From: a virus
Taxonomy: Duplodnaviria > Heunggongvirae > Uroviricota > Caudoviricetes
Strand: one strand, 5' to 3'
DNA length: 64,000 nucleotides
IMG/VR virus record: IMGVR_UViG_3300031787_000010
Coordinates: 73,429-137,428 of that record
Both the position numbers and the translations under genes were made by a program. The notes below the pieces were generated by a model. That model was not told the DNA's origin, did no database searches, and worked only from the letters and a program-made list of their open reading frames with translations. Within the stretch, counting starts at the first letter, position 1. Each line of letters opens with the position of its first letter. Positions 2,096-54,353 of the stretch are shown in pieces.

Positions 2096-2134
2096 AATGA
2101 AATAGGGAAATTGGTACTTCTCGAACCTTCTATA

Positions 2135-2163
2135 AATCTAACAGACTTTCTATGGGGTGTCAA
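2135..2163 (-). promoter_or_regulatory. sigma70-like promoter TTGACA-N17-TAGATT upstream of the MoxR gene
   Basis: Minus strand reads cTTGACAccccatagaaagtctgtTAGATTtatagaagg..GGAGAGtataaacATG; an RBS GGAGAG lies 8 nt before the ATG. Confidence 0.4.
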
Positions 2164-2200
2164 GGGACGTAAGGCTTTGACCTGTAATGCCTTACGTCCC
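2164..2200 (-). repeat. conserved 12-bp-stem hairpin (copy A), terminator-like, fused to the downstream -35
   Basis: GGGACGTAAGGC-tttgacctgtaat-GCCTTACGTCCC. A near-identical copy lies at 4543..4581, with a compensatory extra G:C pair in both arms. Confidence 0.55.
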
Positions 2201-2208
2201 TCTGACCT

Positions 2209-4479
2209 TTACACACCCCGATTGGTCAGTGCTTTGTTGAGGGTACGGATTACGTCAGAAGCGTTTTCGACGTTGACCGCCACTGCATCCTCACCATACA
2301 TCCGGCGGAACACATCCATAGAACGTGTCATACCATAACTGGATTCGGTAATGAAATACGACAATACCTTGATGCCGTGGTCCTTCATATTCTGAACCAT
2401 CTGGCGAGTGTGCTTGAATGCCATCTCACCCTGATAACTACACACCGTAGCATCGTCACCCCAATACGTCCGGCGACCACGCTTCTTCTTCAACATAGAG
2501 CGAAGGTCCAGAGAGAAACCCGGCTCACCATCAGAGAAATTGATGAAGTACACATCGTGAGTAGAAGCACATTCCGTAATCAGTTCCATCGTCGCCTTGA
2601 AACACAGACCCTCGGGAGTCGAACCAGCGGGTGACAAACGAGGAGCCCACTTGAGCCACGAAGTGAACTGGTCCTTACGACTATCGAACACAACACACAC
2701 CACGGGAATATCGTTACCACCGCGAATCGTAATCACCGTATCAATATTGCGCATCTTGTTACCAACATACGCAAGAGCGGTAGCGACCGTCAATACCTTC
2801 TCCCACTTTCGGCCACTCATTGAACCCGAAGCGTCAAGCGTCAAGTGCAACATCGCCGGCTTGAAGGTATCGATGCGTGACTTCTGGAACACGCTGGTAA
2901 TATCCATACCCAGCTGAGCCAACAGTCGGCGGTCAAGACCACCGTGCTGAAGGCGAGTGTTCTTCGTCATCACGGGGTCATTTCGAACCTGGAGACGATG
3001 TACCATAATCTGACCCATGCGCTTACCGGCGGCAATAGCCTTCTTACGAAGATCGTTCTCACGGCTACCATCCCACGATGACCAACTACGGAAGATGAAC
3101 CAGTCCTGCGTAAACATAGCCTCTGACATCTTTCGCGTCACCATACACTCACCGCCGGGAATACCATCACCCTTAAGGTCAACCATCTTAGCCTGCGCAT
3201 TCTCCAGTGCATCAGCGGCGAGAAGTTCCGCCTTCTTAGCCTTCCGCTTCTTCAGCTCACCATTGACAACATCCTTGGCCTTCTCGACCTGTGACTTACC
3301 ACGCTTGTCGTTGAAGTTACGGGGCTTCTCCTTACCAGCCTTCGTCTTATCAGCCTCTTCGACTTCCGTAGGAACCATCTGACCCCGAGGAATGTCCAGA
3401 TTCGGAAGATTGTTAGTAGAATCAATCACAGACTGTGCCGAAGGAAATCCATCCATCGGCTGATTGTTATAGGTAGGAACGCCTTCATTGCCCTTATTCG
3501 CATCTTCCATACTACGAGCGACGAAACGAAGAATGTAAGCGTAAAGTTCGTTGGCCGTCTGCCAAATAGCAGGCATGTGGTCATACGAAATAATATCCTT
3601 CCACACCTTATCGGTCGGAGCGATACGCTCAATGTTTCGAAGGTCCATCATCTTGATAAGAGTATCCAAGCCGGGAAGCGCAGTCGGATTCGATGCCGGG
3701 TGAATAACAAACAATAGACGATTGATGTAGTTCTCAACAGTCAGTTCACGCCAGCTCGGATTCCAGCGAAGATTACGTTCAATCTCCGTAGTAAAAAAGT
3801 ACCTTTCATACAGGCTATCGTAGTAAGGACGATATCCACCGCAATTCTGATACACATACTTGTCGATACGACGATCTTCAAGGATGTTCATAATCATCTG
3901 CAGGTCGTGAACATACTGACGAGCAACACGTGCATACAATGTCACATTGTCCGAATGACGGGCATTGGTCATCGCAGGTGGGAGTAGTGCCGCAAGAGAC
4001 GGATGGAGAATCTTCTTAAGGACAGTACTCACTTCAATTTGTTCATCATAGCCGTGATTCTGCTGTGGGAGAACGCGATTGCCCCATCGGGTATCGATAC
4101 CCCAATCGGTGTCAATCTGCTTGGCAACTTCAGCTACAGCGGAAACAAATTCAAAGTCGCTCAGAAGAACGTGACTACCTTCGTGGAGAGCGAGGCCGAC
4201 CATAGAATCGAAATGATTGGGATTGTCGTCAGCGGCGATGATAACTTCCTTACCATCGGTGTAACTATCCTTGCCCGACGAATACCGAACCGGAATATCA
4301 TTACGACCTGTCAGAATGTTGACAAAGTTCGCAGTGGCACGACGAGCGGCACTGAGCCGAGCGACCCGTGCCAGATTGGCAATTTCCTCTGTCTCCTCGA
4401 CACCATCCTGCAGTTCGTTCTCATCGTCGAAGAGGTCAGAGTCCAGCCAGTAGTTAGAATGAGAGGTGTTTTTCGTCAT
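2209..4479 (-). CDS. von Willebrand factor A domain protein (CobT-like partner of the MoxR ATPase)
   Basis: 756 aa. VWA/MIDAS-like region (LTLDASGSMSG), a long acidic/lysine-rich linker, and adjacency to a MoxR AAA+ gene. Confidence 0.75.
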   Translation of the reverse strand: MTKNTSHSNYWLDSDLFDDENELQDGVEETEEIANLARVARLSAARRATANFVNILTGRNDIPVRYSSGKDSYTDGKEVIIAADDNPNHFDSMVGLALHEGSHVLLSDFEFVSAVAEVAKQIDTDWGIDTRWGNRVLPQQNHGYDEQIEVSTVLKKILHPSLAALLPPAMTNARHSDNVTLYARVARQYVHDLQMIMNILEDRRIDKYVYQNCGGYRPYYDSLYERYFFTTEIERNLRWNPSWRELTVENYINRLLFVIHPASNPTALPGLDTLIKMMDLRNIERIAPTDKVWKDIISYDHMPAIWQTANELYAYILRFVARSMEDANKGNEGVPTYNNQPMDGFPSAQSVIDSTNNLPNLDIPRGQMVPTEVEEADKTKAGKEKPRNFNDKRGKSQVEKAKDVVNGELKKRKAKKAELLAADALENAQAKMVDLKGDGIPGGECMVTRKMSEAMFTQDWFIFRSWSSWDGSRENDLRKKAIAAGKRMGQIMVHRLQVRNDPVMTKNTRLQHGGLDRRLLAQLGMDITSVFQKSRIDTFKPAMLHLTLDASGSMSGRKWEKVLTVATALAYVGNKMRNIDTVITIRGGNDIPVVCVVFDSRKDQFTSWLKWAPRLSPAGSTPEGLCFKATMELITECASTHDVYFINFSDGEPGFSLDLRSMLKKKRGRRTYWGDDATVCSYQGEMAFKHTRQMVQNMKDHGIKVLSYFITESSYGMTRSMDVFRRMYGEDAVAVNVENASDVIRTLNKALTNRGV

Positions 4480-4513
4480 AGTCCTATATGAAGGGGTTTT
4501 GGGGATACGTTGA

Positions 4514-4542
4514 AATGTACCTACAAACTACCCCAAAGTCAA
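4514..4542 (-). promoter_or_regulatory. sigma70-like promoter TTGACT-N17-TACATT upstream of the VWA gene
   Basis: Minus strand reads cTTGACTttggggtagtttgtaggTACATTtcaacgtatccccaaaa. A TTTGGGG/CCCCAAA inverted repeat brackets the -10. Confidence 0.4.
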
Positions 4543-4581
4543 GGGAGCGTAAGGCTTTGTCCTGTAATGCCTTACGCTCCC
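4543..4581 (-). repeat. conserved 13-bp-stem hairpin (copy B), terminator-like, fused to the downstream -35
   Basis: GGGAGCGTAAGGC-tttgtcctgtaat-GCCTTACGCTCCC. Same element as 2164..2200, with a covarying base pair. Confidence 0.55.
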
Positions 4582-4593
4582 TTCCCTACGCAT

Positions 4594-5570: not shown

Positions 5571-5609
5571 TATAACTCCGTTTAGTCTTGAAAGATAACA
5601 ATACTATGT

Positions 5610-10714: not shown

Positions 10715-12649
10715 TTATCCTAGAATATCTCTGTTAGCTTGTTGTAGTAATTTAGCGAAGTCATCGTGTACTGCCATAATTAATTTCCACGTTGAACCAT
10801 ATGCAATACCGTCCGGTCTGGATACAATTTCTGCTATAGGTATTGCCGATCCTCCTGTCTTTGCTTGATACACAATAGACGGAGGAGGTGGTTCATCACG
10901 AATAGTTAATTTCTGTTCAATCTCGTCGAAATTATCTGTACCGAATACTTTCTTCAGAATAGTTCTGTCTGCGATAGTATCACCTAGTGCCATACTTTCT
11001 TCACCCTCGAATAAAGCACGCAGAGGAAATGCATCACGAATAGACTTTAAAAGTCCAGTACGCGCTTGTTTATCTGTCAATAAGAAGTCACGAACTGCTC
11101 TAGAATGTTTATGTGAGTTAGCCACTAGCTTGTCAGCATATCTACCACTTTCTGTATTCTTACCGATACCACGCATGATTGACAACATAGTTTTGTTCTG
11201 GTCGGCAGTGTTTCCACCAACGACACTTGTAAGCGCCGCTTTAAATTCATCACCATTCTTAAATGATTGTTTGGACAACTTATTCAGACGGTCTGCTATT
11301 TGTTTAGCATATGCTTCTTTTTGATTTAGACTTTTCGCAATCTCTGCTGCGATTGTGGCTTTTTCTTTTACACTAGCCTTTGCCCACCTACCCATAAAGG
11401 ATTTAACTTCCTTCATAGCACCTTGGTCATTTAGAAAATCATCGTACAACTTTTGTTGTCTTTGAATTGCCTTTTCAACCTTTACATCATCTGGAACATC
11501 TGCGTTATACTTTTTAACCATCTCATCACGTTGCTTAACCAAAACAGCACGTTCACGTTTGTTTTGTGCAGTTGGTTCTCTGCCAAGAGCATCTATACGA
11601 GCGTTCAAATCTTCGTAAACTTCAATATCTTCTTGACTCGCTCTACCATATACCATAATGTCGGCAACGCGACCCGAAGTTGCATTAAGAAGATTTGCTC
11701 TCAATTCCTTTTTCAAAGAAATTTCGTCAAGAACTGTCTTTCCCCCAACTTTTACTTTTGCGTATACGTCTGTAGAGAATCCCTTATTATTTTTATAGTC
11801 TGCTAAACCGAGTCCTTCGACCTCATCCTTAATGTCCCAGGCCATATTATCTAATTCCCAATTGCCCTTCCCATATTTTTGATCATATCTCTTGAACATT
11901 GCAGTTCTTACTCGTTGAGCCGACTTGACCCAGGCCGAATCGATGATACTTTCCTTTCCTTTTTCCATTGCCTTAACGTGAGATGAAACCAACTGAAAAA
12001 ATTCCGTAGCTTTCTTTTCATCTTTAATAGTCAATGCCATCATAGTCAACAATTCACCCGTAGTCGATGATAATGTACCTGCTCCAGAAGCATCAGTAAA
12101 ATCCGTGATGGTAAGCGCACCAGGCTTCGTACTTAATAGTCTGGATAGTACTTTGACATACTTACGAGGGAACCGCGTTTTTCCGTTTTTATCTAAAAAG
12201 AATGCTTCTATTTCTTGCGGTTTAATTGATTTACTTGTAGGTTTTACTTTTGGATTCTTTCTGAAATCCGCATCACTTACGCCGTCTTTAGCAAATCTAC
12301 TATCGGTATTGAACTGTTCTGTAGTTTTTACTTTCTGATCCAAATCCTTTTTCTTTGGAGTACCACGACGCTTTTTTGGTTCAGCGGATGTTGATGTTTT
12401 CGATGGTTGTTCTGCTGGTTTAACTTTGGCAGCCTTTGCTGTGGTTTTTTTCGGTGCCTTTGCTTGTCGTGACTTAAGTAATGCCTGATATTGATTCCAC
12501 GCTGGATGTTTTTCACCCTTGGTTCGAATGGTTTTTACGGTTGCCTCACCTTCCTTCCCCTTGGCATCCTTATATTTAATAATTTGTTTATCGAGTTCTT
12601 CATCTTCATTTAGGATTGATGCAAAAAACTCCACAAGTAATTCTTTCAT
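10715..12649 (-). CDS. large lysine-rich protein with a histone-H1-like low-complexity segment
   Basis: 644 aa. AKAPKKTTAKAAKVKPAEQPSKTSTSAEPKKRRGTPKKK segment. No enzymatic motif recognised. Confidence 0.5.
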   Translation of the reverse strand: MKELLVEFFASILNEDEELDKQIIKYKDAKGKEGEATVKTIRTKGEKHPAWNQYQALLKSRQAKAPKKTTAKAAKVKPAEQPSKTSTSAEPKKRRGTPKKKDLDQKVKTTEQFNTDSRFAKDGVSDADFRKNPKVKPTSKSIKPQEIEAFFLDKNGKTRFPRKYVKVLSRLLSTKPGALTITDFTDASGAGTLSSTTGELLTMMALTIKDEKKATEFFQLVSSHVKAMEKGKESIIDSAWVKSAQRVRTAMFKRYDQKYGKGNWELDNMAWDIKDEVEGLGLADYKNNKGFSTDVYAKVKVGGKTVLDEISLKKELRANLLNATSGRVADIMVYGRASQEDIEVYEDLNARIDALGREPTAQNKRERAVLVKQRDEMVKKYNADVPDDVKVEKAIQRQQKLYDDFLNDQGAMKEVKSFMGRWAKASVKEKATIAAEIAKSLNQKEAYAKQIADRLNKLSKQSFKNGDEFKAALTSVVGGNTADQNKTMLSIMRGIGKNTESGRYADKLVANSHKHSRAVRDFLLTDKQARTGLLKSIRDAFPLRALFEGEESMALGDTIADRTILKKVFGTDNFDEIEQKLTIRDEPPPPSIVYQAKTGGSAIPIAEIVSRPDGIAYGSTWKLIMAVHDDFAKLLQQANRDILG

Positions 12650-12693
12650 ATGTTATCTCTAGCTATTGGACTTATATAAATATTACCACAAAC

Positions 12694-13074
12694 TCACTTT
12701 GCCCACTTTCTACGAGTAACTAACTGGCAAATAATACCGTAAACCGACAAGTCTTGGAACGTATCATCTACGCTTTCACCAACAGCATCCGGCTTACCCA
12801 ACACAACCATTTGCTTTAATCGTTGAATCTTATCATTCATACGGAACCAGAGTCCAGTTAAAGACAATTTAATATCATCTTCAGTCTGTAACGAAGTACC
12901 TACTGAAATGTTGGATGGTCCGTAGTTTAATTGCTTGGAACAAAATGTGTCGTACTGTTCCATACAAATCTTTAAGAACTCCGCAGTCATTCCCGGATAT
13001 TCGTTCTCAATCTGCTCTATTGCTGCGTTGTTTCGTGCTTCAAATTCTACTGTAATAACCTTTTTCATATACAC
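12694..13074 (-). CDS. hypothetical protein (126 aa)
   Basis: ORF in operon context. Confidence 0.4.
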   Translation of the reverse strand: MYMKKVITVEFEARNNAAIEQIENEYPGMTAEFLKICMEQYDTFCSKQLNYGPSNISVGTSLQTEDDIKLSLTGLWFRMNDKIQRLKQMVVLGKPDAVGESVDDTFQDLSVYGIICQLVTRRKWAK

Positions 13075-26941: not shown

Positions 26942-26984
26942 ACAATAAACCTCTGGTCATTTTGTGGAAATAACCATTAGTATC

Positions 26985-27006
26985 TATAAATAGTAATGTA
27001 TTACTA
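26985..27006 (-). promoter_or_regulatory. plus-strand TATAAATA motif overlapping the 7-2-7 palindrome TAGTAAT-GT-ATTACTA, upstream of the lipoprotein gene
   Basis: Seen directly in the sequence. Confidence 0.3.
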
Positions 27007-28593: not shown

Positions 28594-28657
28594 GTCGAAC
28601 TATTTGATATTTATACTAGGAGTTAATCTTGTATTTTCATATTAATAAGGTAATAAA

Positions 28658-34866: not shown

Positions 34867-36169
34867 CCGCCGTTAGTTTAATGTTTGGGTGTTCTCGTAA
34901 CGTATTTCGATACGGGCTCCATTTAATTTGAACACCCCATCCGAGTTCATTCAATAAGTCATACTTTGAAATATACTTCCGAGTATGGATAATGTCAATG
35001 ATGTTATCAATTGCTTTTGAGTTTAACATCTTCTTAAACGTAAATACTTTATCCCACTTATCAAACCATTGGTCAATTCTAATACCCCATAACATATTAT
35101 ATGACAGTTCTTTAGTATTATAGGTTAATGGGTTATCTAGCATTTCTTCAAACTTCTCTACGAATTCCGCTCGGTTCTTATAGAAGTATGGATAATCAGC
35201 GGGAACCATTTCGGGATAGCAGAGTTTCTTCGGGAGCAAGTATGGAACGTTCATTGACAACCCATCGGTGGTGCTGATACTCCATGCCGAATATCCTTCA
35301 AAGCACGCAACCCCAAACTGCATCCGTTGCATCTGTGCCATATATCCTTCACGCGTTGGTTCATCAATCTGCTTATTCCACGGACGGTCAATCTTGGCAT
35401 AGGTCGTATAGACGGTAAAGTCTTGACGCTTCTGCCAGAGATCATCCATTGCTTTCACAAACCAATTCCAGCCCGTGTAGTCATTCGCACGATGATTGAA
35501 GATAACCGACTTGGGAATAATGTTACTGACATCTCGTACTTCACTTCTATCTACGCCCAAGTAATGTGGCTGAATAATCTTGTCAAGCTGTGCAATCACA
35601 TTGTCGTTGAAATGTTCTTTTGCATATTCAATCACAAAGTTCTTCAACCACTTACTATTTACCCCACATTCTTCCATTTCCAGTATGCCCAAAATGTTGT
35701 TAAGGAACATTGTCTTGGCGTAGGGAGCGTTCTCCGCTACTTCAAACCAATGACAATATCCGATAATCTTTGGCATGAGATGTGTGCTGTTATGAATGAC
35801 GTTCGCAATCTGTGAGGTATGTTCTGGGAGATGACTATAAATAATATCATAGTCATTGTGTCTCCAATCAATTACCTTCAAGAACTCCGTTGCATCAAAG
35901 TGTGTCCGCATCAGATTGGGATACGTGGGCAACTTGTAAATGACTTGCTTGACGTTGGGCTTGTTCAAACTTTTAATCGTGGATGGGGTCAGCAACGTAT
36001 AATGAATTTTATGCCGGTCATCCATATTGGTAAGCACGGGTTTCAATACTTGAACAAAACTATCTCGTTCAAGGTTTTCAATATCGGTGTAGTTACCATA
36101 AATCAACACACGATAATCATACTGCTGATGAGCATCGTATGTTGATTCTAAAAAGTTTGTAATATCCAT
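34844..36169 (-). CDS. hypothetical protein (441 aa; possibly GT-B-like)
   Basis: No firm motif. Confidence 0.45.
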   Translation of the reverse strand: MDITNFLESTYDAHQQYDYRVLIYGNYTDIENLERDSFVQVLKPVLTNMDDRHKIHYTLLTPSTIKSLNKPNVKQVIYKLPTYPNLMRTHFDATEFLKVIDWRHNDYDIIYSHLPEHTSQIANVIHNSTHLMPKIIGYCHWFEVAENAPYAKTMFLNNILGILEMEECGVNSKWLKNFVIEYAKEHFNDNVIAQLDKIIQPHYLGVDRSEVRDVSNIIPKSVIFNHRANDYTGWNWFVKAMDDLWQKRQDFTVYTTYAKIDRPWNKQIDEPTREGYMAQMQRMQFGVACFEGYSAWSISTTDGLSMNVPYLLPKKLCYPEMVPADYPYFYKNRAEFVEKFEEMLDNPLTYNTKELSYNMLWGIRIDQWFDKWDKVFTFKKMLNSKAIDNIIDIIHTRKYISKYDLLNELGWGVQIKWSPYRNTLREHPNIKLTADGYEWKD

Positions 36170-37598: not shown

Positions 37599-37709
37599 TA
37601 TTATTTCCAAAAAGTTTTTTAAGAAGTTTGTGCATACCCATCACGAACAATCCAAATCCAAACACGAACAATCCCCAATACTGGTCGATGTCATTCTGTT
37701 CGGTTGTCA

Positions 37710-38435
37710 TTATTCCTTCGTATCAATCTGTACGAGATAATAGGTAGACTTGATATTGTCTACGTTGAACGAGGTACGAGCCAATCCCTTTGAAGATATT
37801 TCCAGCTTACCACCCTTCGCGTCCTTATTGGCAACGAGGATTTCACGGAGATACTTGGCGGAGAACGAAGTGGGCTTCAGTTCCGTAGCTTCAGTCGTCT
37901 TAGCCTTGAGCTTCACACGATTGGTATTAAGCGACGAGAACCCAAGAACAACGTTTGCCGTTTCATCCTCACCCTCACTCATTACAGCGAATGTATCAAC
38001 ATCGGCAAGAGCACCCTTAGCCTTAACGAACGTGTTGATAAACTGTTCATCCATCTCAATTGTCATCTCAAATGGCGGAAGCTTCTTTAGATCGGGAACA
38101 GCTGGAATTACGGTAGCGTCAGCGAGAACAAACGTGACTTCCGTATTCGTATCATCAAACGTCATACCAACAGCCTTATCACCAGACTTCTTTACGTTCA
38201 CAGAAAGCGTCTCACCAAGAACCCCAAGGAGTGAACGGAGCTTGGCGGTTTCATAGACGGCATAGTTACCATCCTTCAATCCCATCGACGGGGCAATTAC
38301 TTCACAGAGTACATTCTTGTCATCGGAAATAGCACGTGTCGTGATAGAAGAGTTCTCTACGTTATAAAGAACACTCTCACACGAACCACCCAGATTATAT
38401 TTTCCAATGAACTTTTCAAACTTTGACTTTTCCAT
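37710..38435 (-). CDS. probable sliding clamp (gp45-like)
   Basis: 241 aa, acidic, with gp45-like length and N-terminal pattern. Located in the replication module near the clamp loader. Confidence 0.5.
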   Translation of the reverse strand: MEKSKFEKFIGKYNLGGSCESVLYNVENSSITTRAISDDKNVLCEVIAPSMGLKDGNYAVYETAKLRSLLGVLGETLSVNVKKSGDKAVGMTFDDTNTEVTFVLADATVIPAVPDLKKLPPFEMTIEMDEQFINTFVKAKGALADVDTFAVMSEGEDETANVVLGFSSLNTNRVKLKAKTTEATELKPTSFSAKYLREILVANKDAKGGKLEISSKGLARTSFNVDNIKSTYYLVQIDTKE

Positions 38436-39698: not shown

Positions 39699-40604
39699 TC
39701 AAAACTCAAAGAACTTTTCAGCGTTCTCATTTATAGGGTTTAACGTACAATGTTCAGGTACAACATATTCTCCTTCTTTTCTAAAAACCAACACATATTC
39801 GTGAACTTTACTGGTGTATCGTTTTGCCGCAACCTTTCCGGCTTGAAGTGCGGCAAACGGAGAATTGTTTTTGATAATTACAATATCGTGAAACAGTAGT
39901 CCAGCGTCTTTTGTAAATGTATTAATAGTATCTGAATGGAATGGATAGAATTTGTTCTTCCCACTCCAATCTCTGAAGTCAGCACAGACCCACACACAAA
40001 ACGCACCGGGTTTTAGAACACGTGCAATATTCTTTCCACATACAGTAATCATCTGCATGAACTCATCATAAGACTCTGTACTGGAAAGTTGTGCATCTAC
40101 ATCCTCATACTTTTCAATGTTCCAGTATGGAGGACAAGTCATCACTAAATCAACAGTAGCGTCAGCCGTGTGTTTCAATTGTGTCCCATCGTCAAGATGT
40201 AAACTTGCCGACAATCCAATTTCTTTCATATGCTCCGTTACACGTTTATGGGTACTAGGAGAAATTTCGTACCCTTCATATGTACGGTTTAATGTAGTAG
40301 AAACTACGGCACGTGTGGCACGTCCCATAAATGGGTCAACGATATGTGAGCCGGGTAGGCTCCAGTATTTAACAATGTTTTCGCATAGACCTGCGTGAAA
40401 TTCACTAAATCCCAATCCAGGCAAATATTCCGACGTATCACTTCTACGCTTTTCTTCATCAATTTGATCAATATATGCCACATCCCATTTTGCTTTACTT
40501 TCCCGCGTTGGTTCTATAATAGACAATGGTAGCCAACCAAATTGGTCCGCTACCTTTGCATCTTCATAAAATGGAAGTGTTTGTTTATATAACCGTTTAG
40601 TCAT
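39699..40604 (-). CDS. DNA amino-methyltransferase (N6-adenine or N4-cytosine)
   Basis: Motif I DPFMGRATR and motif IV TCPPYW. Confidence 0.7.
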   Translation of the reverse strand: MTKRLYKQTLPFYEDAKVADQFGWLPLSIIEPTRESKAKWDVAYIDQIDEEKRRSDTSEYLPGLGFSEFHAGLCENIVKYWSLPGSHIVDPFMGRATRAVVSTTLNRTYEGYEISPSTHKRVTEHMKEIGLSASLHLDDGTQLKHTADATVDLVMTCPPYWNIEKYEDVDAQLSSTESYDEFMQMITVCGKNIARVLKPGAFCVWVCADFRDWSGKNKFYPFHSDTINTFTKDAGLLFHDIVIIKNNSPFAALQAGKVAAKRYTSKVHEYVLVFRKEGEYVVPEHCTLNPINENAEKFFEF

Positions 40605-40617: not shown

Positions 40618-40878
40618 TTATGATTTAAAGTGAACCATTCTAGCTATACCGTTTTTAAAATTAGCGGTGAACAAATCGGTTCGCTCATCATAAAATGTAA
40701 TATCACCTGTAAAGTTTTTCAAGTGCTGATAACTTCCAGATATTTCTCTGTATAGTTCTCCACTACTCGACACAAAATAATGTCCTTCTTGTTTTGATTT
40801 TATCTTAAAAGCGTGTCCACATCCAACACCAGGCAAAGACATTTCCCATAGAATATTATCATCTAAGCCCATAAACAT
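40618..40878 (-). CDS. hypothetical protein (86 aa)
   Basis: ORF in operon context. Confidence 0.4.
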   Translation of the reverse strand: MFMGLDDNILWEMSLPGVGCGHAFKIKSKQEGHYFVSSSGELYREISGSYQHLKNFTGDITFYDERTDLFTANFKNGIARMVHFKS

Positions 40879-40910
40879 TATCAGTTGGATGTGTATCTAT
40901 AAATATTATT

Positions 40911-41312
40911 TTAATCCCACAAATGTTCGTAATACTTTCCAAACAATCGAAATCCATTGGCAATACGTTCGTGATGTGCTTCACGATGTTCCCAATCAAC
41001 ATCATCTATTAATTTACTTTCAAACGCAAAAATCATTTCATCCATTATCCAATCCCACCGCTTGAAATGGTTATCGTCTGTATCCCATTCATTTTCGGTA
41101 GGTGGTGCTGCTGATGTACGAAGGTGTTCAGGAACATCTGCATCGTCTGTAAATGGAGCACCATGTTTGGTTTCTCTCAACTGTTTCAGCATAGGAGCAA
41201 CGATATAGGCCAACGTATGGTCCATGCTCCAAGTATCCCACGGATCAATCTTCACAGAAATCTTCCGTTCTTTTTTGCTATTCTTTGGATATCTGCCTAT
41301 GTAGACTTTCAT
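40911..41312 (-). CDS. hypothetical protein (133 aa)
   Basis: ORF in operon context. Confidence 0.4.
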   Translation of the reverse strand: MKVYIGRYPKNSKKERKISVKIDPWDTWSMDHTLAYIVAPMLKQLRETKHGAPFTDDADVPEHLRTSAAPPTENEWDTDDNHFKRWDWIMDEMIFAFESKLIDDVDWEHREAHHERIANGFRLFGKYYEHLWD

Positions 41313-41823
41313 TTCGTAACATCCTATTCAGAAGTTGATAATCAAAAAGCGGACCTGGGTCACGTTTACGTCCTAAAGGCGTTGCCACATCCGAATGCCC
41401 TATGATTGTTCTTGATGTACTATCGGGAAATCGTTCTTGTAACGATAGAATCAACCACGTTAAACTATTATACTGATTCAATGTATATGGCCCACTAATA
41501 CCGTTTTCCAAACATATCCCGATACTATATCGATTAATACGAAGCATTCCATTCCAATATGACAACCCAACGTGAGACGCCTCATATTTTGGATCTAATA
41601 GTTTGACAATCGTACCATTTGCTTGAATATAATAATGATAACTCAATCGACGTTTAATCAAAGTACGCCGTGCTGTATTATAACCAGCGGTCCCACCATC
41701 ATTGTGTAATACTATATAGTTAACCGTTGTATCTCGAATTGTCAAGTGCCGTATTGGTAGCGGCCTATTCAATACTGTAGGAACTGTTAGTTGAAAAAAT
41801 AAAAGTAGTGTGTATACAAACAT
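41278..41823 (-). CDS. N-acetylmuramoyl-L-alanine amidase endolysin (amidase_2/PGRP fold) with an N-terminal hydrophobic segment
   Basis: IVLHNDGGTAGYN...YHYYI...HSDV zinc-amidase pattern. N-terminal MFVYTLLLFFQLTVPTVL suggests signal/SAR-type export. Confidence 0.75.
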   Translation of the reverse strand: MFVYTLLLFFQLTVPTVLNRPLPIRHLTIRDTTVNYIVLHNDGGTAGYNTARRTLIKRRLSYHYYIQANGTIVKLLDPKYEASHVGLSYWNGMLRINRYSIGICLENGISGPYTLNQYNSLTWLILSLQERFPDSTSRTIIGHSDVATPLGRKRDPGPLFDYQLLNRMLRNESLHRQISKE

Positions 41824-41835
41824 ATCTTCTCCTAG

Positions 41836-41939
41836 TGGCGGCGGGAGATTCGAACTCCTATTCCTTGGCCTAGCGTAGTAAAGGATATAACAAGTAGCGA
41901 GCCCAATTTACTACCGTCGTCCCGACCGACTGCGCCGCC
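41836..41939 (-). tRNA. tRNA-like gene, atypically long (104 nt), CCA not encoded
   Basis: Minus strand GGCGGCG...CGCCGCC forms a 7-bp acceptor stem with discriminator A. A canonical T-arm GGAGTTCGAATCTCC and a D-arm GTCG-GTCGGGA-CGAC are present. The central part has an 8-bp stem GTAGTAAA/TTTACTAC enclosing a 24-nt loop, which is not a standard anticodon arm. Confidence 0.5.
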
Positions 41940-41947
41940 ATTTTTTA

Positions 41948-42226
41948 TTATTTTAGATCATCAATCATTCGCATGTGCGTTTCATACAATTTCTCTGTTC
42001 CTCTAAACTGTCCATTCTCGACCAGTTCGTTAAACAGGTTCATCGTATCATTGAACCTCTGATTATAAATAGATTTGATTCCAAACAACATATTCATAAT
42101 CTCATCTTGATGCTTTGCTGGGATCTCACTATCCGCAACATAACTAGCGATGGTATCCACATCATCGGTTACATGCCAACACTGCATAATCATCTCTTCA
42201 AATAAAAATCGGTCACGTTTCTGCAT
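41948..42226 (-). CDS. hypothetical protein
   Basis: Start set at the internal Met MQKRDRF to avoid a 95-nt overlap. Confidence 0.4.
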   Translation of the reverse strand: MQKRDRFLFEEMIMQCWHVTDDVDTIASYVADSEIPAKHQDEIMNMLFGIKSIYNQRFNDTMNLFNELVENGQFRGTEKLYETHMRMIDDLK

Positions 42227-46452: not shown

Positions 46453-47217
46453 CTAGTTCCAGTAATTTACTTTGGCTTTTTCAAAGTGTTTGAGATTATT
46501 TCTATTGAAGAAGTTGACGGTCATATACCATAGCATCCCCAAGTATCCTAACTTCTTGAATCGACGTTCATCTTGACCGAAGTAGTGGTCACCGATTTGA
46601 AAATATTTAGCATGATATTCTCTGCTCAATATATAATCTTCTGATGTCTCATACTTGTTCGGAAATGCACCGAAGTACTCAAATGCATCTCGTCTAGTGA
46701 GAAAGAATGCCCCAATCGCAAATGGAGTTTTTTTGGTCATAATCTTATTGATAATATTGAATGCCCAGAAAAAGAATGAAGCACGTAAATCACTTCCATA
46801 ATTTTTGATGTTCAATGTCATCAAATCCAGATTGAATGTTCGCATCTGATATAAGGTATCACTAATCGCTCGTGGATGAAAGAATCGGACATCAGCATCC
46901 AAGAACAGTATATACGGAGTAGTAACTAATTTCGCACCGTTGTTTCGTCCAACAGATACATTTCCACCTTTGATGACTTCGATATTGAGGTCACCCTTGT
47001 ACGTGTTTATAAGAGGGACAGTAGCATCGGTACTATCGGCATCTGCGATAATGATGCGGACATCTCCAATATCGTGCTGTTGAAGCAAATCTTCCAATAA
47101 AGGGACAATATAGTTTTCTTCATTCTTACACGGGATAACAATCGTCAGTAAATCTTTCATACGCACCTCATTGGGGGTGTTTATATACATATCAAAACGC
47201 AAACCACTCCGACGCAT
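46453..47217 (-). CDS. glycosyltransferase family 2
   Basis: LTIVIPCKNEE...DADSTD...LDADV GT2 motifs. Confidence 0.65.
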   Translation of the reverse strand: MRRSGLRFDMYINTPNEVRMKDLLTIVIPCKNEENYIVPLLEDLLQQHDIGDVRIIIADADSTDATVPLINTYKGDLNIEVIKGGNVSVGRNNGAKLVTTPYILFLDADVRFFHPRAISDTLYQMRTFNLDLMTLNIKNYGSDLRASFFFWAFNIINKIMTKKTPFAIGAFFLTRRDAFEYFGAFPNKYETSEDYILSREYHAKYFQIGDHYFGQDERRFKKLGYLGMLWYMTVNFFNRNNLKHFEKAKVNYWN

Positions 47218-49714
47218 TCTGATTGACTTCGGTGGGAATGTTTCCCCATTTCAGTGCGGAATAAAAATCATCCAATTTATTTCTTAATTCATTATCGAAC
47301 AAGGCATCGGTATCGATATACTGTTGAATAAAGTCGGTGATTTGTGGAGGATCTTGATATCCCTTAACTGCTACCGCTTCAATCTGTAACGGGTTCTTTT
47401 TCAGATAAACATACTTAATCTTTTCACCATCTGAAATCGGTTCGTATCGGTCATCGATTCCAAAGTGTACCAGCAATCGATTATAGATAATAGCCGACTT
47501 AATGTGGGCGGGAGTAGACTTCTTTGCCGCCTTCAACCCCACCACGTTATCCATTACATATTCAGAGATGTTATTTGCCGCAGTATTTCGAGCAATATCT
47601 AGATAGTTTCTATCATCCAACGATGCCTTGAACTCCAAGATTTTAGTGTCCATTTCCTCTTTATGCATACCCTTCAAAATATCCTTCAACATCTGACGCA
47701 TGAAGTCACCAAATGCTTTCGGGAAACTTGAACGAACTACATCCAATCCCTTAACCACCATCTTACTGACATCTTGACTCGTTTCCAAATCATACACCTT
47801 ATCAAGTGCATATCGCTTCTTTGATACCCAGAACCCCGTAGATGCAACGGATTCACCCTTGATGTAAAAACGATGCGAATTGCAATTAAAAGCACGTTTT
47901 GCGAACGTGTCATAAAATTTATTTAACAATGCTTCCATCTCACGTGCTTTTTCAATCGTAAACTGCTTTGCATCAGCGTCTGGTGGAAGGATAGGTTTTG
48001 CTGAAGCATAGATGGAGTCGGTGTCGATATACGTTACATAGTCCCCCGCCTCTCCCAACAACTTTTCATACTGCTTGTTTACTAATTTGGCACTAGATTT
48101 AATAACGTCTTGTCCTGTAATTGTAACCGCAGCAGCGTTGTCAACGTCATAGAAACGGAACACAGGCAACCCAAGAACACCATACAACGAATTCAAGAAA
48201 ATCTTCTGAATATGTTGGCGTCGGTCATAATAGTCTGCCATTTCCTTGTTTCCTTCGTTGACATACTTCTTCATCGTGTTCTTATATTCGACACGCTGAC
48301 TAAACCACGTATCAAGAACTTCTGGAATAATACCCTTCTTATCGTTCGTATACAGTACACCATTCGAACTTACCGATAGATTATTATCCGTAATGAATTC
48401 CATAAATGTATCGTAGTCCATTTCCATAGAAGAGTCTGTACCCTTTTCCTCAACAACATAAGCAGTAATCTCTTTACGGAAATGTTGTTCCATATTCCAG
48501 TTCCGAACAAATCCAATCTTCGTTTCTGGGCTGATGTTAAGACTCATAATGATGGATGGATACAGCGATTGCAAGTCGAGAGAATATACCCAATCATACA
48601 AACCAGGTACCGGCTCTTTCACATATGCACCGATAAACCCTTCCTCTCCACGGTCAAGTGCTTCCATCTTCTCACGACTATCTTGCGGTTTATCCGTCAC
48701 GATAATTCCCTTACGATGAAGGTAAGTGACGATGGTGCCTTCGAGGAATCGTGACGACATTGGATAGTCCTCATACGGCACGTGTCCGATGTGACAAATA
48801 CCACGCACAAGTTCGATGAGCTTCAACTTCTTGTCAAGCTCAACAATGATACGCACGTCTTGTAGGTTATACTCAATAAACTTATCAAGGTCATCTCGAA
48901 ACAATTGATCGAGAGAACCTTCATATGGAATCTTACCCATATTGACTTCAATGCGACCAATTGTATCAAGTCGATAGTTTGGTTGCTGTGTATAAGTAAA
49001 CTTCTTGTATAGGTCAAGATAGTCCAGCGAACTTACTCCAGCAATTCTATATTTTTCCTGTCGTTCGGAATATTTTACCTTACCGATTGGGGACAGCCGA
49101 TTGGCAACAGAGGGACCGCAGACTTGTCGGATACGATTATACAAATATGGTACGTCGAAATAGTTACTATTCCAACCGGTGATGATTGTGGGTTGAATTT
49201 CTTCGTACAAGGAGATGAACTTATGGAGTAAGTCAACTTCCGTAGGACAGAATATCGTATCCACTTCTTCCGTCATTCTATTGTCGTACAACTTTGTTGT
49301 ATCAAGTACGAACACCGTGTATTTGTTTGTTGTTGGATCATATGCAGCAATTGAAGTGATTTCATTATTAGGCTTATGAATATTTGGAATACCATTTGCC
49401 ATCGACACCTCAATATCGAAAAACATCACAATGTTCCCTTCGGACGGCGTATCCTCGTCTAGATAAACATCCGTCAACACCCGTGTTTCTTTTGGCAAGT
49501 CACTCTCAAACACGTTTGGGTGTCCACGCATAAATCGGCGTGTCTTACTCAAACGTTCACCCGTCATACTTATAAACTTGCCCTTCGGGTCTTTTACATA
49601 TGCATAATTGAAATCTGCCCACGGCAAAATAATCAACCCCTGTTTATCGTCCCAAATATAAACAGTAGGTGATTCATCACCGTGCATATCAACATATATG
49701 TTTTTATAAGCCAT
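47192..49714 (-). CDS. family-B DNA polymerase with 3'-5' exonuclease
   Basis: Exo I FFDIEV, pol motif B KIFLNSLYGVLG, motif C YIDTDSIY; 840 aa. Confidence 0.9.
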   Translation of the reverse strand: MAYKNIYVDMHGDESPTVYIWDDKQGLIILPWADFNYAYVKDPKGKFISMTGERLSKTRRFMRGHPNVFESDLPKETRVLTDVYLDEDTPSEGNIVMFFDIEVSMANGIPNIHKPNNEITSIAAYDPTTNKYTVFVLDTTKLYDNRMTEEVDTIFCPTEVDLLHKFISLYEEIQPTIITGWNSNYFDVPYLYNRIRQVCGPSVANRLSPIGKVKYSERQEKYRIAGVSSLDYLDLYKKFTYTQQPNYRLDTIGRIEVNMGKIPYEGSLDQLFRDDLDKFIEYNLQDVRIIVELDKKLKLIELVRGICHIGHVPYEDYPMSSRFLEGTIVTYLHRKGIIVTDKPQDSREKMEALDRGEEGFIGAYVKEPVPGLYDWVYSLDLQSLYPSIIMSLNISPETKIGFVRNWNMEQHFRKEITAYVVEEKGTDSSMEMDYDTFMEFITDNNLSVSSNGVLYTNDKKGIIPEVLDTWFSQRVEYKNTMKKYVNEGNKEMADYYDRRQHIQKIFLNSLYGVLGLPVFRFYDVDNAAAVTITGQDVIKSSAKLVNKQYEKLLGEAGDYVTYIDTDSIYASAKPILPPDADAKQFTIEKAREMEALLNKFYDTFAKRAFNCNSHRFYIKGESVASTGFWVSKKRYALDKVYDLETSQDVSKMVVKGLDVVRSSFPKAFGDFMRQMLKDILKGMHKEEMDTKILEFKASLDDRNYLDIARNTAANNISEYVMDNVVGLKAAKKSTPAHIKSAIIYNRLLVHFGIDDRYEPISDGEKIKYVYLKKNPLQIEAVAVKGYQDPPQITDFIQQYIDTDALFDNELRNKLDDFYSALKWGNIPTEVNQNASEWFAF

Positions 49715-49728
49715 ATAACCTCGTTTTA

Positions 49729-50198: not shown

Positions 50199-50200
50199 AG

Positions 50201-51391: not shown

Positions 51392-51424
51392 AGTTAAACT
51401 CTACAAGAATTCATTTGACGTATC

Positions 51425-51742
51425 TCAAAATTTTATAGCACGTTCAATTTTACTTTTAATTTTATCTTTTGGAGTTACACCAAAAGCAAATTCTCTTTTA
51501 CGTCCATCTTTGTACACCAACAACATAGGTACCGCCTTTGCTCCTGTGAACGTCTTTGCATCCGGCACCGTGTCGATGTCTACCTTATAAAATTGTAGTG
51601 GAATCTCTTCCGATAACTCTTCAATTACTGGTAGCATCTCTTGACACGGTTGACACCAAGAAGCGTATAAATCTACCACCACTACATCATCAGCAGTAAC
51701 CGCTTCCTTTAACTCATCAATAGTCTGAATACTAGAAATCAT
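51425..51742 (-). CDS. thioredoxin
   Basis: WCQPCQ CxxC motif, 105 aa. Confidence 0.75.
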   Translation of the reverse strand: MISSIQTIDELKEAVTADDVVVVDLYASWCQPCQEMLPVIEELSEEIPLQFYKVDIDTVPDAKTFTGAKAVPMLLVYKDGRKREFAFGVTPKDKIKSKIERAIKF

Positions 51743-51782
51743 ATAATATATTTCCTTGTGTTGAATCCCTTGTGTATAAATA

Positions 51783-54353
51783 TCATCCCATCAATTCTTT
51801 TATGTTAACAAAGGTAATTCCAGAATCAATTAAAGACTGATTGTTCTTTTTGATTTCTTCAAAGAAATTCCATGCCAACACTAAAATAATATCTGGTTTA
51901 TCCTCGTTAATCTTATCCTTTGAGAAGATAGGAATCTTCACACCTGGAACATACTTTCCATGCTTTAGTGTGTTGTCCTCAACGATGTAAGAAATTTCTT
52001 CATTTGTCAATCCGAAATAGTTTAAAGCTGTGGTTGCTTTCGCTGGTGCTCCATATCCAACAATCTTTAAACCGTTCTTCTTCATCATCTTAACATTTTT
52101 AACGATGTTGTTTTTTGCCGATTCCACTCTCTTGGCAAAGTTAACATACGTTTCATATTTGTCAAGACCACATTCCAATTCTTGTGCTAAAAAGTATGAA
52201 ACACTTGCATCCACATTCTCTGGATTCTTTGCGATATAGACTCGGATAGAACCACCGTGAGTATTCACGTGCTCAACCTTATAGACTTTATAACCCAATA
52301 TATTAAAGAAGTTATTGAGTGACAACACACTCCAATAATTGAAGTGTTCGTGATAGATGTTATCGAACGTCAAATCTTGTATTGTGTTTAATAGGTATTG
52401 TACTTCAATAATCAACGAACCATCTGGCTTAAGTAACGTAAATGCGGCGTTTGCCATTTCCTTCAAGTCGTTCGCATGAGCAAATACATTTGATGCAGTA
52501 ACTACATCGGCATGACCGTGAGTACTAACGATTTCATTTGCTACTCCTGTATTGAAGAAGGAACATATTGTAGGAACTCCTGCGTTTCGTGCCAACTCTA
52601 CAATATTTTCAGCAGGTTCTACACCCAAAACTCTTACATTCTTTTCCATAAATGGCTTCAAAGCAATACCATCGTTCGAACCAATATCAACGACCAACGA
52701 CTCTTCTGTCAAATTAAACTGCTTCGTGTATGAATCGGCTGCTTGTACGAAATGTTCTCTAAATGATTTTGATGTTGACGACACATACAGATAATGCTTG
52801 AACATTTTTTCTGATGGTACTGAATATGATAGCTGACAGTTATGACTGTCTGGACTATACATCAACTCTAGTGGAAACATTTCACACGGTTCTTCTGATG
52901 AGTCTAGTAGGTTGTTTGCTAACGGTGACAGTCCCAACGATAATACCGGCTTGATATTATCGTTTCCCGTAATTCTATCTGATGTCTTGTAATCCCGTAA
53001 CAGTTCATCTCTAAACTTCTCGTCTACCAGTACGTATGGAATCGTGTGTGTAACGCCATAGTTTTCATGCTTACGTTCACCACGAACCAGATTTAAAAAG
53101 ATAGAGTCTTTAGTAAACACCATTGTATGTGCAACATTTGGACGGATAACAGACAAGTCACCTTCATTAATTACCTGTGTTTCAATCTTTGCGTTTGGTA
53201 CAGACAAATCTTTGATGACACTAATGTACTGACCCTTAATGAGTAAGCACTTCTGCTCTTGTACAGGATGATAGTGATTTGCCCGAACAGATCCTGCCTT
53301 TGATTCAATGTATCCAATCAAATTAATAGGTTCTGTTAATTCGTAGTTACTAATCTTTCCGCGTGAATCAACATATTCATCACCACCACGAAGAATATAT
53401 TCCAATCGTTCAGGCTGTTCACGTTCCGACCAGTTGGTTACCATCTCTTTAATAGCGGATGTAAGTTTATTTTGGAATGTAAATCCCGTTGATAGCAACT
53501 TTTTGTTTGATAACGTATATCCTACGTTTGGAATCTCATCATCCGTTTCAATGAGATTGGTATCTGGTTCAATCGATTTGACAATTTCTGCTACCTGCTT
53601 AACTGTCATATTCTCATCAGTTAGATGGAAGATTTCATTCTTGATGTCACTACGTTCTTCCATAAACTTAAAAGAACGCACAACATCGTGAATACAAACC
53701 AACGACTTTAATTGTACGCCGCGGCCGAATAGTTTCAATGTAGCATTTTGCGATGCCATCTTTGAAAAGAGATTTGGCATGATACCGATACGCATTGTAT
53801 CCGTAGAGTATCCATATACCGAACCCAATCGTAAGATAACATAATCCTTGCCAGATGATTTAATATCAAGTTCATTCTGGTATTTACTACGAGAATATGT
53901 TAATACCGGAGTAGGTTGCTCTGTTTCTTCAATATCAAACTTTGCGTCGGGGAATCCTTCGAACACAACGTGTGTGGAAGGGAACACAATCTTACAATGT
54001 GAAGGAATGTGTTTCAGAATATTCAGCGTACCCTGAATTGCAGTACGCTGAATCTCGTTATCCTTTTCTGTATTTGATTCGGTTTTCGTATAAGCTACAT
54101 CAGTAATACCGGCGAGATGGTGAACAACATCTGCATCCTTTAAAATTTCAGACATTTTTTCGTCGTCCAAAATACTACATTGAACGAAGTCGATTCCCCA
54201 ATCACGTAATTGCTTAACACGTTCTGAAACGAATCTATTGTCGGTAACTACAATTTTCTTAAATCGTGCTTCACCGGAATATAACTTTGTCAGTTCCGAC
54301 CCGATATATCCCAACCCGCCGGTAATTACTACTTTCTTATGTCCCATATACAT
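51783..54353 (-). CDS. tri-domain sugar-nucleotide modifying enzyme: SDR epimerase/dehydratase + cupin (ketoisomerase/3,5-epimerase-like) + class-I SAM methyltransferase
   Basis: N-terminal ITGGLGYIGSEL; central cupin (ANHYHPVQEQKCLLIKGQY); C-terminal methyltransferase motif I VVDIGSNDG. Confidence 0.7.
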   Translation of the reverse strand: MYMGHKKVVITGGLGYIGSELTKLYSGEARFKKIVVTDNRFVSERVKQLRDWGIDFVQCSILDDEKMSEILKDADVVHHLAGITDVAYTKTESNTEKDNEIQRTAIQGTLNILKHIPSHCKIVFPSTHVVFEGFPDAKFDIEETEQPTPVLTYSRSKYQNELDIKSSGKDYVILRLGSVYGYSTDTMRIGIMPNLFSKMASQNATLKLFGRGVQLKSLVCIHDVVRSFKFMEERSDIKNEIFHLTDENMTVKQVAEIVKSIEPDTNLIETDDEIPNVGYTLSNKKLLSTGFTFQNKLTSAIKEMVTNWSEREQPERLEYILRGGDEYVDSRGKISNYELTEPINLIGYIESKAGSVRANHYHPVQEQKCLLIKGQYISVIKDLSVPNAKIETQVINEGDLSVIRPNVAHTMVFTKDSIFLNLVRGERKHENYGVTHTIPYVLVDEKFRDELLRDYKTSDRITGNDNIKPVLSLGLSPLANNLLDSSEEPCEMFPLELMYSPDSHNCQLSYSVPSEKMFKHYLYVSSTSKSFREHFVQAADSYTKQFNLTEESLVVDIGSNDGIALKPFMEKNVRVLGVEPAENIVELARNAGVPTICSFFNTGVANEIVSTHGHADVVTASNVFAHANDLKEMANAAFTLLKPDGSLIIEVQYLLNTIQDLTFDNIYHEHFNYWSVLSLNNFFNILGYKVYKVEHVNTHGGSIRVYIAKNPENVDASVSYFLAQELECGLDKYETYVNFAKRVESAKNNIVKNVKMMKKNGLKIVGYGAPAKATTALNYFGLTNEEISYIVEDNTLKHGKYVPGVKIPIFSKDKINEDKPDIILVLAWNFFEEIKKNNQSLIDSGITFVNIKELMG

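Follow-up and report, generated by a model that had tools for sequence, protein, structure and literature searches.

A TATTTAT(A) element as a probable sense-strand late promoter in a group of T4-like phages

The 64,000-nt stretch of viral DNA analysed here (the window), from a freshwater phage of ~190 kb, carries a short AT-only motif in the gaps between its genes. We judge, at a probability of roughly 0.7, that this TATTTAT(A) element is a sense-strand, -10-like late promoter of a large and mostly uncultured group of T4-like phages. In the mechanism we propose, the core (A)TATTTAT(A/T) would take the place of the bacterial -10 hexamer and would act without a -35 partner. It would define a second promoter class (class II) of a T4-like lineage whose first (class I) is sigma-70-like, TTGAC(A/T)-N17-TATATT. 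A phage-encoded specificity factor would redirect host RNA polymerase to the box, transcription would begin a few bases 3' of it, and the class II genes would be expressed late. Most likely, class II serves the virion, baseplate and lysis genes of the late phase, together with some metabolic genes, much as TATAAATA serves late genes in T4. The motif is concentrated in intergenic DNA, its direction is coupled to that of the genes, it is conserved across the clade and at orthologous genes, it lacks a -35 element, and it is linked to structural and lysis genes.

Placement and direction in the window

An initial annotation of this DNA had drawn attention to TATAAATA on the plus strand at 12675-12682, 26985-26992, 40898-40905 and 51775-51782, and to TATAAATC at 2131-2138, each in a short gap between minus-strand ORFs. 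All five matches are exact and all five lie in such gaps, although the list was incomplete: it missed plus-strand copies at 35836 (coding) and 42064 (in a gap), and minus-strand copies at 28608-28615 and 63285 (coding). One of the five, at 2131, belongs to a different element, described below.

Read on the gene strand, the site at 12675..12682 (minus strand) is aTATTTATAt, intergenic and in the sense direction, 25 nt 5' of the ATG of a 644-aa ORF (10715-12649) and without TTGACA at -35 distance. The minus-strand site at 26985..26992 (cTATTTATAgatac) stands 43 nt 5' of the ATG of a 220-aa ORF (26279-26941) with a lipoprotein-like N-terminus, and a Shine-Dalgarno sequence, AGAGGTT, lies between the two. 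Another, at 40898..40905 (minus strand; aTATTTATAgatac), is 19 nt 5' of an 86-aa ORF (40618-40878). At 51775..51782 (minus strand) the motif, TATTTATAc, directly adjoins the TGA stop codon of 51783-54353 and is 32 nt 5' of a thioredoxin-like ORF (51425-51742). The copy at 42064..42071 (minus strand; cTATTTATAat) occupies the gap 5' of a 31-codon ORF and the endolysin gene; following it are the Shine-Dalgarno sequence AGAGGTT and the 31-codon ORF itself (42043-41948), and further on come a tRNA-like element and the gene for the endolysin (41278-41823). ARAGORN at default settings reported no tRNA, and Rfam gave nothing over the whole window, nor at E≤1 over the tRNA-like region. A variant, ATATTTATt, is found at 62231..62238 (minus strand), 5' of a 133-aa ORF (61798-62199).

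The site at 28608..28615 lies on the plus strand (aTATTTATAc), 42 nt 5' of 28658-30025, which encodes a virion structural protein (phrog_1645) and is the only plus-strand gene of the window. Here the direction of the motif flips along with that of the gene, so that TATTTATA again reads in the sense of the gene that follows. Across the window the motif is 19-45 nt from the start codon, with Shine-Dalgarno sequences in between, and in many cases it immediately adjoins the gene before it, at that gene's stop codon or terminator. Two copies are coding and were counted as background: TATTTATA at 35836..35843, in the sense direction on the minus strand inside 34844-36169, and a plus-strand TATTTATA at 63285..63292, which reads TATAAATA on the minus strand and is antisense inside 62251-63525. 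Tentatively, we count TACTTAT at 56259..56265 (minus strand), in the 33-nt gap 5' of the ribonucleotide reductase gene (54369-56234), as a weak class II variant. A C-containing variant is present in this gap in two relatives as well (L001 and L002), and the gap upstream of the ribonucleotide reductase orthologue of Microcystis phage Mel-JY01 (CDS 58325) has ATATTTATg.

What is non-random is the placement and direction of the motif and not its overall frequency. Counting both strands, TATAAATA has 8 matches against 5.85±2.6 in shuffled sequence, and 27 of 100 shuffles reach 8; TATAAATC has 4 against 5.05 expected. The earlier view that chance was an unlikely source of the enrichment therefore holds for position and orientation and fails for total count. 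Intergenic DNA makes up ~3.0% of the window in our ORF map, in agreement with the earlier estimate of under 3%, and TATTTATA is its top 8-mer, with 6 copies intergenic and sense, none intergenic and antisense, and 2 coding (binomial p=4.8e-9). The intergenic copies of TATTTAT are likewise divided 8 sense to 0 antisense. A chance product of AT-rich intergenic DNA would agree with an overall 8-mer count no higher than in shuffles, but it is effectively refuted: shuffling the intergenic DNA itself yields a mean of 0.63 copies against 7 observed (P≈5e-5), sense copies outnumber antisense ones by 8:0 in the window and by 20:0 in Mel-JY01, and 17 relatives are independently enriched (p≈6e-34).

Two proposed promoter classes

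The gene strand carries 20 matches to the sigma-70-type class TTGACA-N17-TATATT (TTGAC(A/T)-N17-TATATT) and the opposite strand 2, and we presume these class I promoters to be early. It is to this class that the 2131 site belongs: TATAAATC at 2131-2138 overlaps the -10 hexamer of a promoter at 2135..2163 (minus strand, reading 2163-2135), TTGACA-N17-TAGATT, which has a terminator-like hairpin before it and a sister element at 4542-4514. The site fits a sigma-70 definition (a TTGACA-like -35 and a TAnnnT -10, 16-18 bp apart), and its grouping with the other four is not upheld. The class II sites are not of this form, having no -35 and a hexamer, TATTTA, without T at -7. In nine of nine sites of this phage no TTGACA-like sequence is present at 16-18 nt, and the upstream columns have no consensus; the Mel-JY01 sites have no -35 element either. 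By-eye comparison of the bases after each hexamer places TATTTA seemingly where TATATT stands in class I.

Of the readings put forward in the initial annotation, the idea of a promoter class for the minus-strand genes is the one that is supported, but the consensus offered for it, TATTTATAG, is not; the protein-binding site also suggested there is a very general reading. The conserved core is (A)TATTTAT(A/T), and the GATAC extension is found at two sites only, those noted earlier as sharing an extended context, where ATTTATAGATAC is indeed exact on the minus strand at 26980-26991 and 40893-40904. A weight matrix built from the Mel-JY01 sites and scanned over the window did no better at picking out sites than the exact core by itself, since the flanking positions are poorly informative.

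The box could instead be a -10-like site of a host sigma factor, primary or alternative, with no dedicated phage sigma, perhaps with help from an activator of the phage or from a change made to the polymerase; it would then still be a sense promoter, with no new specificity. Hexamers that fit TAnnnT (TAATAT, GATATT and TATATT) overlap the motif at several sites, and we detect no gp55 homologue in Mel-JY01, the window or the related loci. Ma-LMM01, a cyanophage that like Mel-JY01 infects Microcystis and that also lacks gp55 and gp33, reportedly uses SigA-like promoters for all its gene classes, with a late -10 of TATTMT that begins, like the motif here, with TATT (PMC5780444). However, only four late promoters are described there, a -35-like part is retained and T4 core replication genes are missing, whereas the class II motif is longer and has no -35. 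We consider the host-sigma reading unlikely. The invariant bases are TATTTAT; in the register common to all sites the hexamer lacks T at -7, and in the alternative register two window sites (cTATTTAT) also lack A at -11. Eight conserved positions without a -35 are unlike the phage's own sigma-70-type class, and the motif is kept in relatives with GC contents between 0.30 and 0.42, a spread that probably reflects different hosts. A Bacteroidetes-type -7 box (TAnnTTTG) was rejected, by inspection, for a misfit of register.

Conservation in Mel-JY01 and uncultured relatives

The PolB of Mel-JY01 is 45% identical to that of the window phage. Genome-wide, the top upstream 8-mer of Mel-JY01 is ATATTTAT (p=5e-12), and across 66 upstream regions of the annotated first 100 kb the motif occurs 20 times in the sense direction and never antisense. 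Most of the longer gaps of the structural module carry it, about a dozen of them consecutive, always in the sense of co-directional genes, and a sense-strand terminator (a hairpin and T-run) often precedes it. Among the genes that follow the motif are the tail tube gene, the gene immediately 5' of the tail sheath, and unannotated ORFs after the terminase gene and flanking the capsid gene; one baseplate-hub-like and one endolysin-like gene follow it too. The replication genes of Mel-JY01 have TTGCAT-N17-TAnaTT instead of the class II motif.

A near-identity DNA search with 20 kb against a phage collection returned no match. Among 17 diverse uncultured IMG/VR relatives, (A)TATTTAT is again the upstream 8-mer with the strongest enrichment: 31 of 68 copies of ATATTTAT lie in upstream DNA, which is 2% of the sequence (p=5.6e-34), as do 26 of 63 copies of TATTTATA (p=2.5e-27). 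Neither the window nor Mel-JY01 nor the 17 relatives show enrichment of sense TATAAATA 5' of genes. Three relatives (L045, L046 and L063) have no sense copy of the motif in their upstream regions, and ordinary TATATT -10 hexamers account for part of the TATATTTA enrichment seen in early regions of the relatives. The motif is also kept gene by gene. It precedes the orthologues of 61798-62199 both in a relative at 73% identity (L001) and in Mel-JY01 at 33% (CDS 51674-52063), where the flanking DNA differs and the motif stays, and it precedes the baseplate-hub-like gene of this phage (L020:8675-9454, phrog_150) as well as its Mel-JY01 orthologue.

In the phage of the window, late-gene placement comprises the virion protein gene 28658-30025, the endolysin cluster and the baseplate-hub-like gene. 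Some window genes 3' of the motif, such as those for the thioredoxin-like protein and a dUTPase, are not typical late genes; "late" is therefore a probable designation, drawn mainly from Mel-JY01 and from the genes for baseplate, virion and lysis proteins, as judged from sequence.

On its complementary strand the T4-family core ATAAATA reads exactly TATTTAT, and the initial annotation had raised the possibility of antisense late promoters. The opposite strand would then hold genuine late promoters of T4 type (TATAAATA / ATAAATA), sending antisense RNAs into the 3' ends of upstream genes or serving distant opposite-strand genes; the plus-strand TATAAATA at 26985, for instance, is 1.7 kb 5' of the plus-strand virion gene 28658. 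Direction coupling alone does not separate a sense promoter from an antisense one that fires into the upstream gene; context does. The antisense proposal agrees with the sequence of the box and does not fit the relatives, because in Mel-JY01 the motif sits 5' of co-directional structural genes, in most of the longer gaps and often after a terminator hairpin. Those gaps adjoin no opposite-strand genes and hold no other promoter candidate, so an antisense reading would leave the late genes of Mel-JY01 without a promoter and facing about a dozen convergent ones. In the window, moreover, the distance to the start codon is held to 19-45 nt with a Shine-Dalgarno sequence between, and no gp55 that might read a T4-type box was found. 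We regard opposite-strand promoters as quite improbable.

An AU-rich, orientation-specific motif in 5' leaders, 19-45 nt before start codons, might also act in RNA, either as an RNase E-type processing site or as a translational enhancer bound by ribosomal protein S1 on a polycistronic mRNA. This we hold to be highly improbable. Known AU-rich sites of either kind are far less specific than this motif with its 7-8 invariant positions. In Mel-JY01 the motif often lies just 3' of an intrinsic terminator, a place that little read-through RNA would reach, and in low-GC relatives a mere 4-15 nt separate it from the called ORF start.

Recognition and relation to known late-promoter systems

In T4 the late promoter TATAAATA is read by gp55 together with gp33 and the gp45 sliding clamp; transcription starts 6-7 nt 3' of the box and depends on replication and on the clamp. 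The phage studied here has a T4-type replisome, with PolB, a gp44/62-like clamp loader, a probable clamp, gp32, UvsX and a gp41-like helicase. The clamp loader subunits are clear (33940-34866, phrog_168; 31222-31698, phrog_225), and the clamp candidate, 37710-38435, has its orthologue after PolB in Mel-JY01; among PDB entries its profile scores best with the RB69 clamp (E=0.25) and an archaeal PCNA (E=0.36).

We searched for gp55 in the complete Mel-JY01 genome, the window and ~1 Mb of related loci. No match in Mel-JY01, the window or the related loci was obtained by phmmer with T4 gp55 as query, and none by an HMM of 120 T-even homologues, by a second HMM to which the gp55 proteins of cyanophages, ACP17 and Atu_ph07 had been added, or by a regular expression for the NPFAY...F..RI segment; hhalign against 496 ORFs reached a best probability of 8%. 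When 137 Mel-JY01 ORFs (105-290 aa) were scanned against PHROG along with three gp55 proteins as controls, none but the controls matched phrog_234, 34068, 12791 and 19643. Nor were there gp55 or gp33 analogues in the form of small proteins with a PolB-like C-terminus (SEWFAF), which is found only in PolB and a DNA methyltransferase. Two further candidates were rejected. The 756-aa product of 2209-4479 has no DxDGD motif of a phage RNA polymerase and is CobT-like, because it contains a vWA MIDAS-like DASGS motif and adjoins a CobS-like AAA ATPase. The small and highly conserved 12694-13074, considered as the missing factor, is a member of DUF1599 (PF07659) whose homologues number in the thousands.

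T4 late promoters consist of one AT-rich box at -10 with no conserved -35 (PMC2988020; PMC7892883). The class II motif resembles them in being one AT-only box of 7-8 bp at -10 without a -35, lying shortly 5' of virion and lysis genes and alongside presumed early promoters of sigma-70 type. It differs in that the gene strand reads TATTTAT(A), two of eight positions away from TATAAATA in the same register, that a gp55 homologue is not detectable in the complete Mel-JY01 genome, and that no small protein with the PolB-like C-terminus is present. Late promoter variants of the T4-related phages KVP40, 44RR and S-PM2, and one of Aeh1, have been described in silico (PMC2988020). Those, too, are family-specific short -10-like boxes recognized by their position 5' of late genes, but they keep an ...AAATA sense core and the phages encode gp55, whereas the box here has a central TTT and gp55 was not found. 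Our literature search returned nothing relevant on Mel-JY01, or on TATTTATA or ATATTTAT as a phage promoter.

It is tempting to speculate, although we put this forward tentatively and think it rather doubtful, that the T4-like branch including Mel-JY01 and this phage replaced the gp55 system, and that the TATTTAT box is read by a factor unrelated to gp55 or diverged from it beyond recognition. Were this so, late transcription would have been solved a second time, independently, within the T4 superfamily.

The motif provides a usable annotation rule, in that a sense (A)TATTTAT(A/T) without a -35 may mark the transcription units of widespread freshwater and cyanobacterial T4-like phages. It also counsels caution: 8-mer matches should not be named "T4 late promoters" on the match alone with the strand unchecked. 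Mel-JY01, as a cultured member of the motif-bearing group, is open to experiments, and with a different box and no detectable gp55 this clade may serve to test how late-promoter specificity evolves or is replaced.

Position and orientation of the element

The initial annotation singled out a recurrent 8-mer because its core, TATTTAT, exactly matches the reverse complement of ATAAATA, the T4-family late-promoter core. Every coordinate it gave is exact. Overall the 8-mer is not frequent, with 8 matches on the two strands together against 5.85 expected; the non-random signal lies in position and orientation, and in those terms the observation is real. Read on the gene strand as TATTTATA, six of the eight copies are intergenic, in 3% of the window, and all six are sense to the downstream gene (p=4.8e-9). 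TATTTATA is the most intergenic-enriched 8-mer of the window. Two copies were absent from the original list, one at 42071-42064 (minus strand), upstream of a 31-codon ORF and the endolysin gene, and one at 28608-28615 (plus strand), 42 nt before a virion protein gene (28658-30025; PHROG/Pfam scans), the sole plus-strand gene of a window whose minus strand carries nearly all ORFs. A 7-mer search added TATTTAT at 62237-62231 (minus strand). Intergenic copies of TATTTAT in the window number eight sense and zero antisense, and seven were observed against a mean of 0.63 in shuffles of the intergenic DNA itself. Just outside the window, the same phage has two further copies, before a baseplate-hub-like gene (phrog_150; L020:8626) and before a 295-aa ORF (L037:1898).

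A -35 partner was found at none of the TATTTAT sites. From a by-eye comparison of the bases 3' of each hexamer, TATTTA apparently takes the place of the -10 hexamer; the bases that follow begin TAGA in this phage and TGTA in its relative Mel-JY01.

The stretch from the 42064 motif to the endolysin gene includes a 105-nt tRNA-like element (41830-41940, minus strand) with a T arm of canonical form, GGAGTTCGAATCTCC, and an acceptor stem of 7-8 bp (GGCGGCG...CGCCGCC-A). ARAGORN makes no call on it at default settings and reports tRNA-Arg(CCT) with a 23-nt intron at relaxed settings; Rfam gives no match at E≤1. The relative L002 has this element conserved ahead of its endolysin gene as well.

Sigma-70-type promoters and the left end

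The five sites initially grouped as one element do not all belong together. At 2131-2138, TATAAATC overlaps the -10 hexamer of a sigma-70-type promoter, TTGACA-N17-TAGATT (2163-2135), which a strong hairpin precedes, and a near-identical hairpin with TTGACT-N17-TACATT occupies 4593-4514. A search of the whole window for TTGAC[AT]-N16-18-TAnnnT returned 20 gene-strand matches and 2 on the opposite strand, and a sigma-70-type class is therefore abundant in this phage. Its -10 is mostly TATATT and it is presumably early. Several matches fall inside upstream ORFs, at their 3' ends, suggesting that internal early promoters are numerous. The two hairpins, of about 45 nt and containing GGGACGTAAGGCATTACAGGTCAAAGCCTTACGTCCC (2096-2208 and 4480-4593, minus strand), each continue through the 3' arm into the -35 TTGAC; the terminator after the family-B DNA polymerase (PolB) gene (49777-49742) likewise holds TTGACT. 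This arrangement resembles the 'promoter-early stem-loop' cassettes known from T4-type phages.

GC is 0.48-0.49 at 1-4500 and about 0.40 in the rest of the window. Here lie the genes of a CobS-like AAA ATPase (845-2095) and of a vWA protein resembling CobT (2209-4479). The ATPase has no exact product match in the assembly collection and a top IMG/VR match of 78% identity, unlike genes at the opposite end, which are matched at 100%; the left end of the window is possibly mosaic or variable.

Conservation among relatives and the sense reading

Several freshwater metagenomes and IMG/VR contain contigs identical to the window, and one product encoded in it is on record from a 191,683-bp contig. 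PHROG and Pfam scans reveal a T4-type replication and nucleotide module, with PolB (47192-49714), a DnaB/gp41-like helicase, UvsX, gp32, clamp-loader subunits, class II ribonucleotide reductase, dUTPase, dCMP deaminase and thymidylate synthase, together with DNA ligase, endolysin and many sugar-modifying enzymes. The nearest cultured relative is Microcystis phage Mel-JY01, at 45% PolB identity against 34% or less for all other T4-like phages. Close homologues of the DUF1599 (PF07659) product of 12694-13074, about 125 aa long, number at least 8,000 in the protein collection; this protein shares 59% identity with its Mel-JY01 counterpart, above the value for PolB. ORF 36417-37610 has a Pfam match (E=1.3e-31) to DruA, which belongs to the Druantia anti-phage system. 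A DNA methyltransferase-like protein (39699-40604) ends in NENAEKFFEF, closely resembling the PolB end NQNASEWFAF; the PolB C-terminus is the clamp-binding position in T4, and the methyltransferase may be tethered to the clamp.

Among 8-mers upstream of genes in the complete Mel-JY01 genome, read in the direction of the gene, ATATTTAT is the most enriched (p=5e-12) and TATTTATA follows closely; across 66 upstream regions (first 100 kb, deposited annotation), ATATTTAT occurs 20 times sense and never antisense. The motif fills most longer gaps of the structural module, standing before the ORF following the terminase gene, the genes preceding and following the capsid gene, the gene preceding the tail sheath, and the tail tube gene and the two after it. 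It is also found before an endolysin-like gene, and frequently lies immediately 3' of a hairpin and T-run. Replication genes carry TTGCAT-N17-TAnaTT, not the motif, a division that matches T4's known early/late split. A long promoter-like consensus, (a)GTTCTTGCATA-N~12-TTCGTAnaTTTGTA, is also common to the early and replication genes of Mel-JY01 (L006/L007, for example at record positions 63050-63100, 69100-69160, 71900-71960, 76510-76575, 83370-83440 and 98290-98345), and CTTGCATA and AGTTCTTG are among the top upstream 8-mers of this phage.

The same signal emerges from 17 diverse IMG/VR relatives fetched via a 618-aa protein of the phage under study (43-61% identity). Here ATATTTAT is the top upstream 8-mer, with 31 of 68 copies in 2% of the sequence (p=5.6e-34), and 26 of 63 copies of TATTTATA lie in upstream DNA (p=2.5e-27); T4's TATAAATA shows no enrichment in these relatives. 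Loci around the AAA-ATPase gene are enriched in a related word, TATATTTA, and were given less weight because ordinary TATATT -10 hexamers paired with TTGACA contribute part of that signal. The motif is kept despite diverged flanks upstream of 61798-62199 and its orthologues in L001 (73% identity) and Mel-JY01 (CDS 51674, 33% identity), and upstream of the baseplate-hub-like gene of this phage and its Mel-JY01 orthologue (CDS 35136, 43% identity). Upstream of ribonucleotide reductase, the Mel-JY01 gap has ATATTTATg; in the window, L001 and L002 the corresponding gap has TACTTAT, a variant containing a C. Among the low-GC relatives, several carry the motif ahead of a 935-953-aa ORF, and downstream of the motif comes a conserved 56-66-nt leader (TATTTATttacgaaggtaaatgccgacc..attcggtagctaatacaccaaaagtaaata) with a hairpin (L047:12237, L048:14327, L050:18239, L052:14430, L056:4979, L061:3995), which may be a conserved 5' UTR structure.

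Orientation coupling alone is insufficient to tell a sense from an antisense promoter; context decides. T4 late transcripts arise in either polarity (PMC2988020), so the idea of an antisense late promoter is not absurd. In Mel-JY01, however, about a dozen consecutive gaps that separate co-directional late structural genes contain the motif, placed 3' of sense-strand terminators and as far from start codons as a promoter would be; those genes have no other promoter candidate. An antisense reading would leave the late genes without promoters and facing many convergent ones, so we interpret the element as a promoter acting in the sense direction.

Recognition and the probable promoter class

In T4 it is gp55, homologous to sigma region 2, that recognises the late box, aided by gp33 and the clamp (PMC7892883; PMC2988020). 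Neither the complete Mel-JY01 genome nor the window nor the fetched loci gave a gp55 homologue in searches by phmmer, two custom HMMs that took in cyanophage, ACP17 and Atu_ph07 gp55, motif regex and hhalign, and in a PHROG scan of 137 Mel-JY01 ORFs the late-sigma families were matched by the three control gp55 proteins only. No phage RNA polymerase was evident; the large protein at 2209-4479, considered for this role, is CobT-like instead. Clamp-loader genes are present and a sliding clamp is probable. Candidates for the factor that reads the motif are a host sigma, a phage factor unrelated to gp55 and a gp55 too diverged to be detected.

Most likely, with a probability of about 0.7, the motif represents a class of promoters that are read in the sense orientation, resemble a -10 box, lack a -35 and drive late expression. 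The motif is conserved across a broad T4-like clade. Although its box sequence is not T4's and no gp55 homologue was detected in the Mel-JY01 genome, the window or the fetched loci, the motif would work in the same manner as the T4 late promoter.
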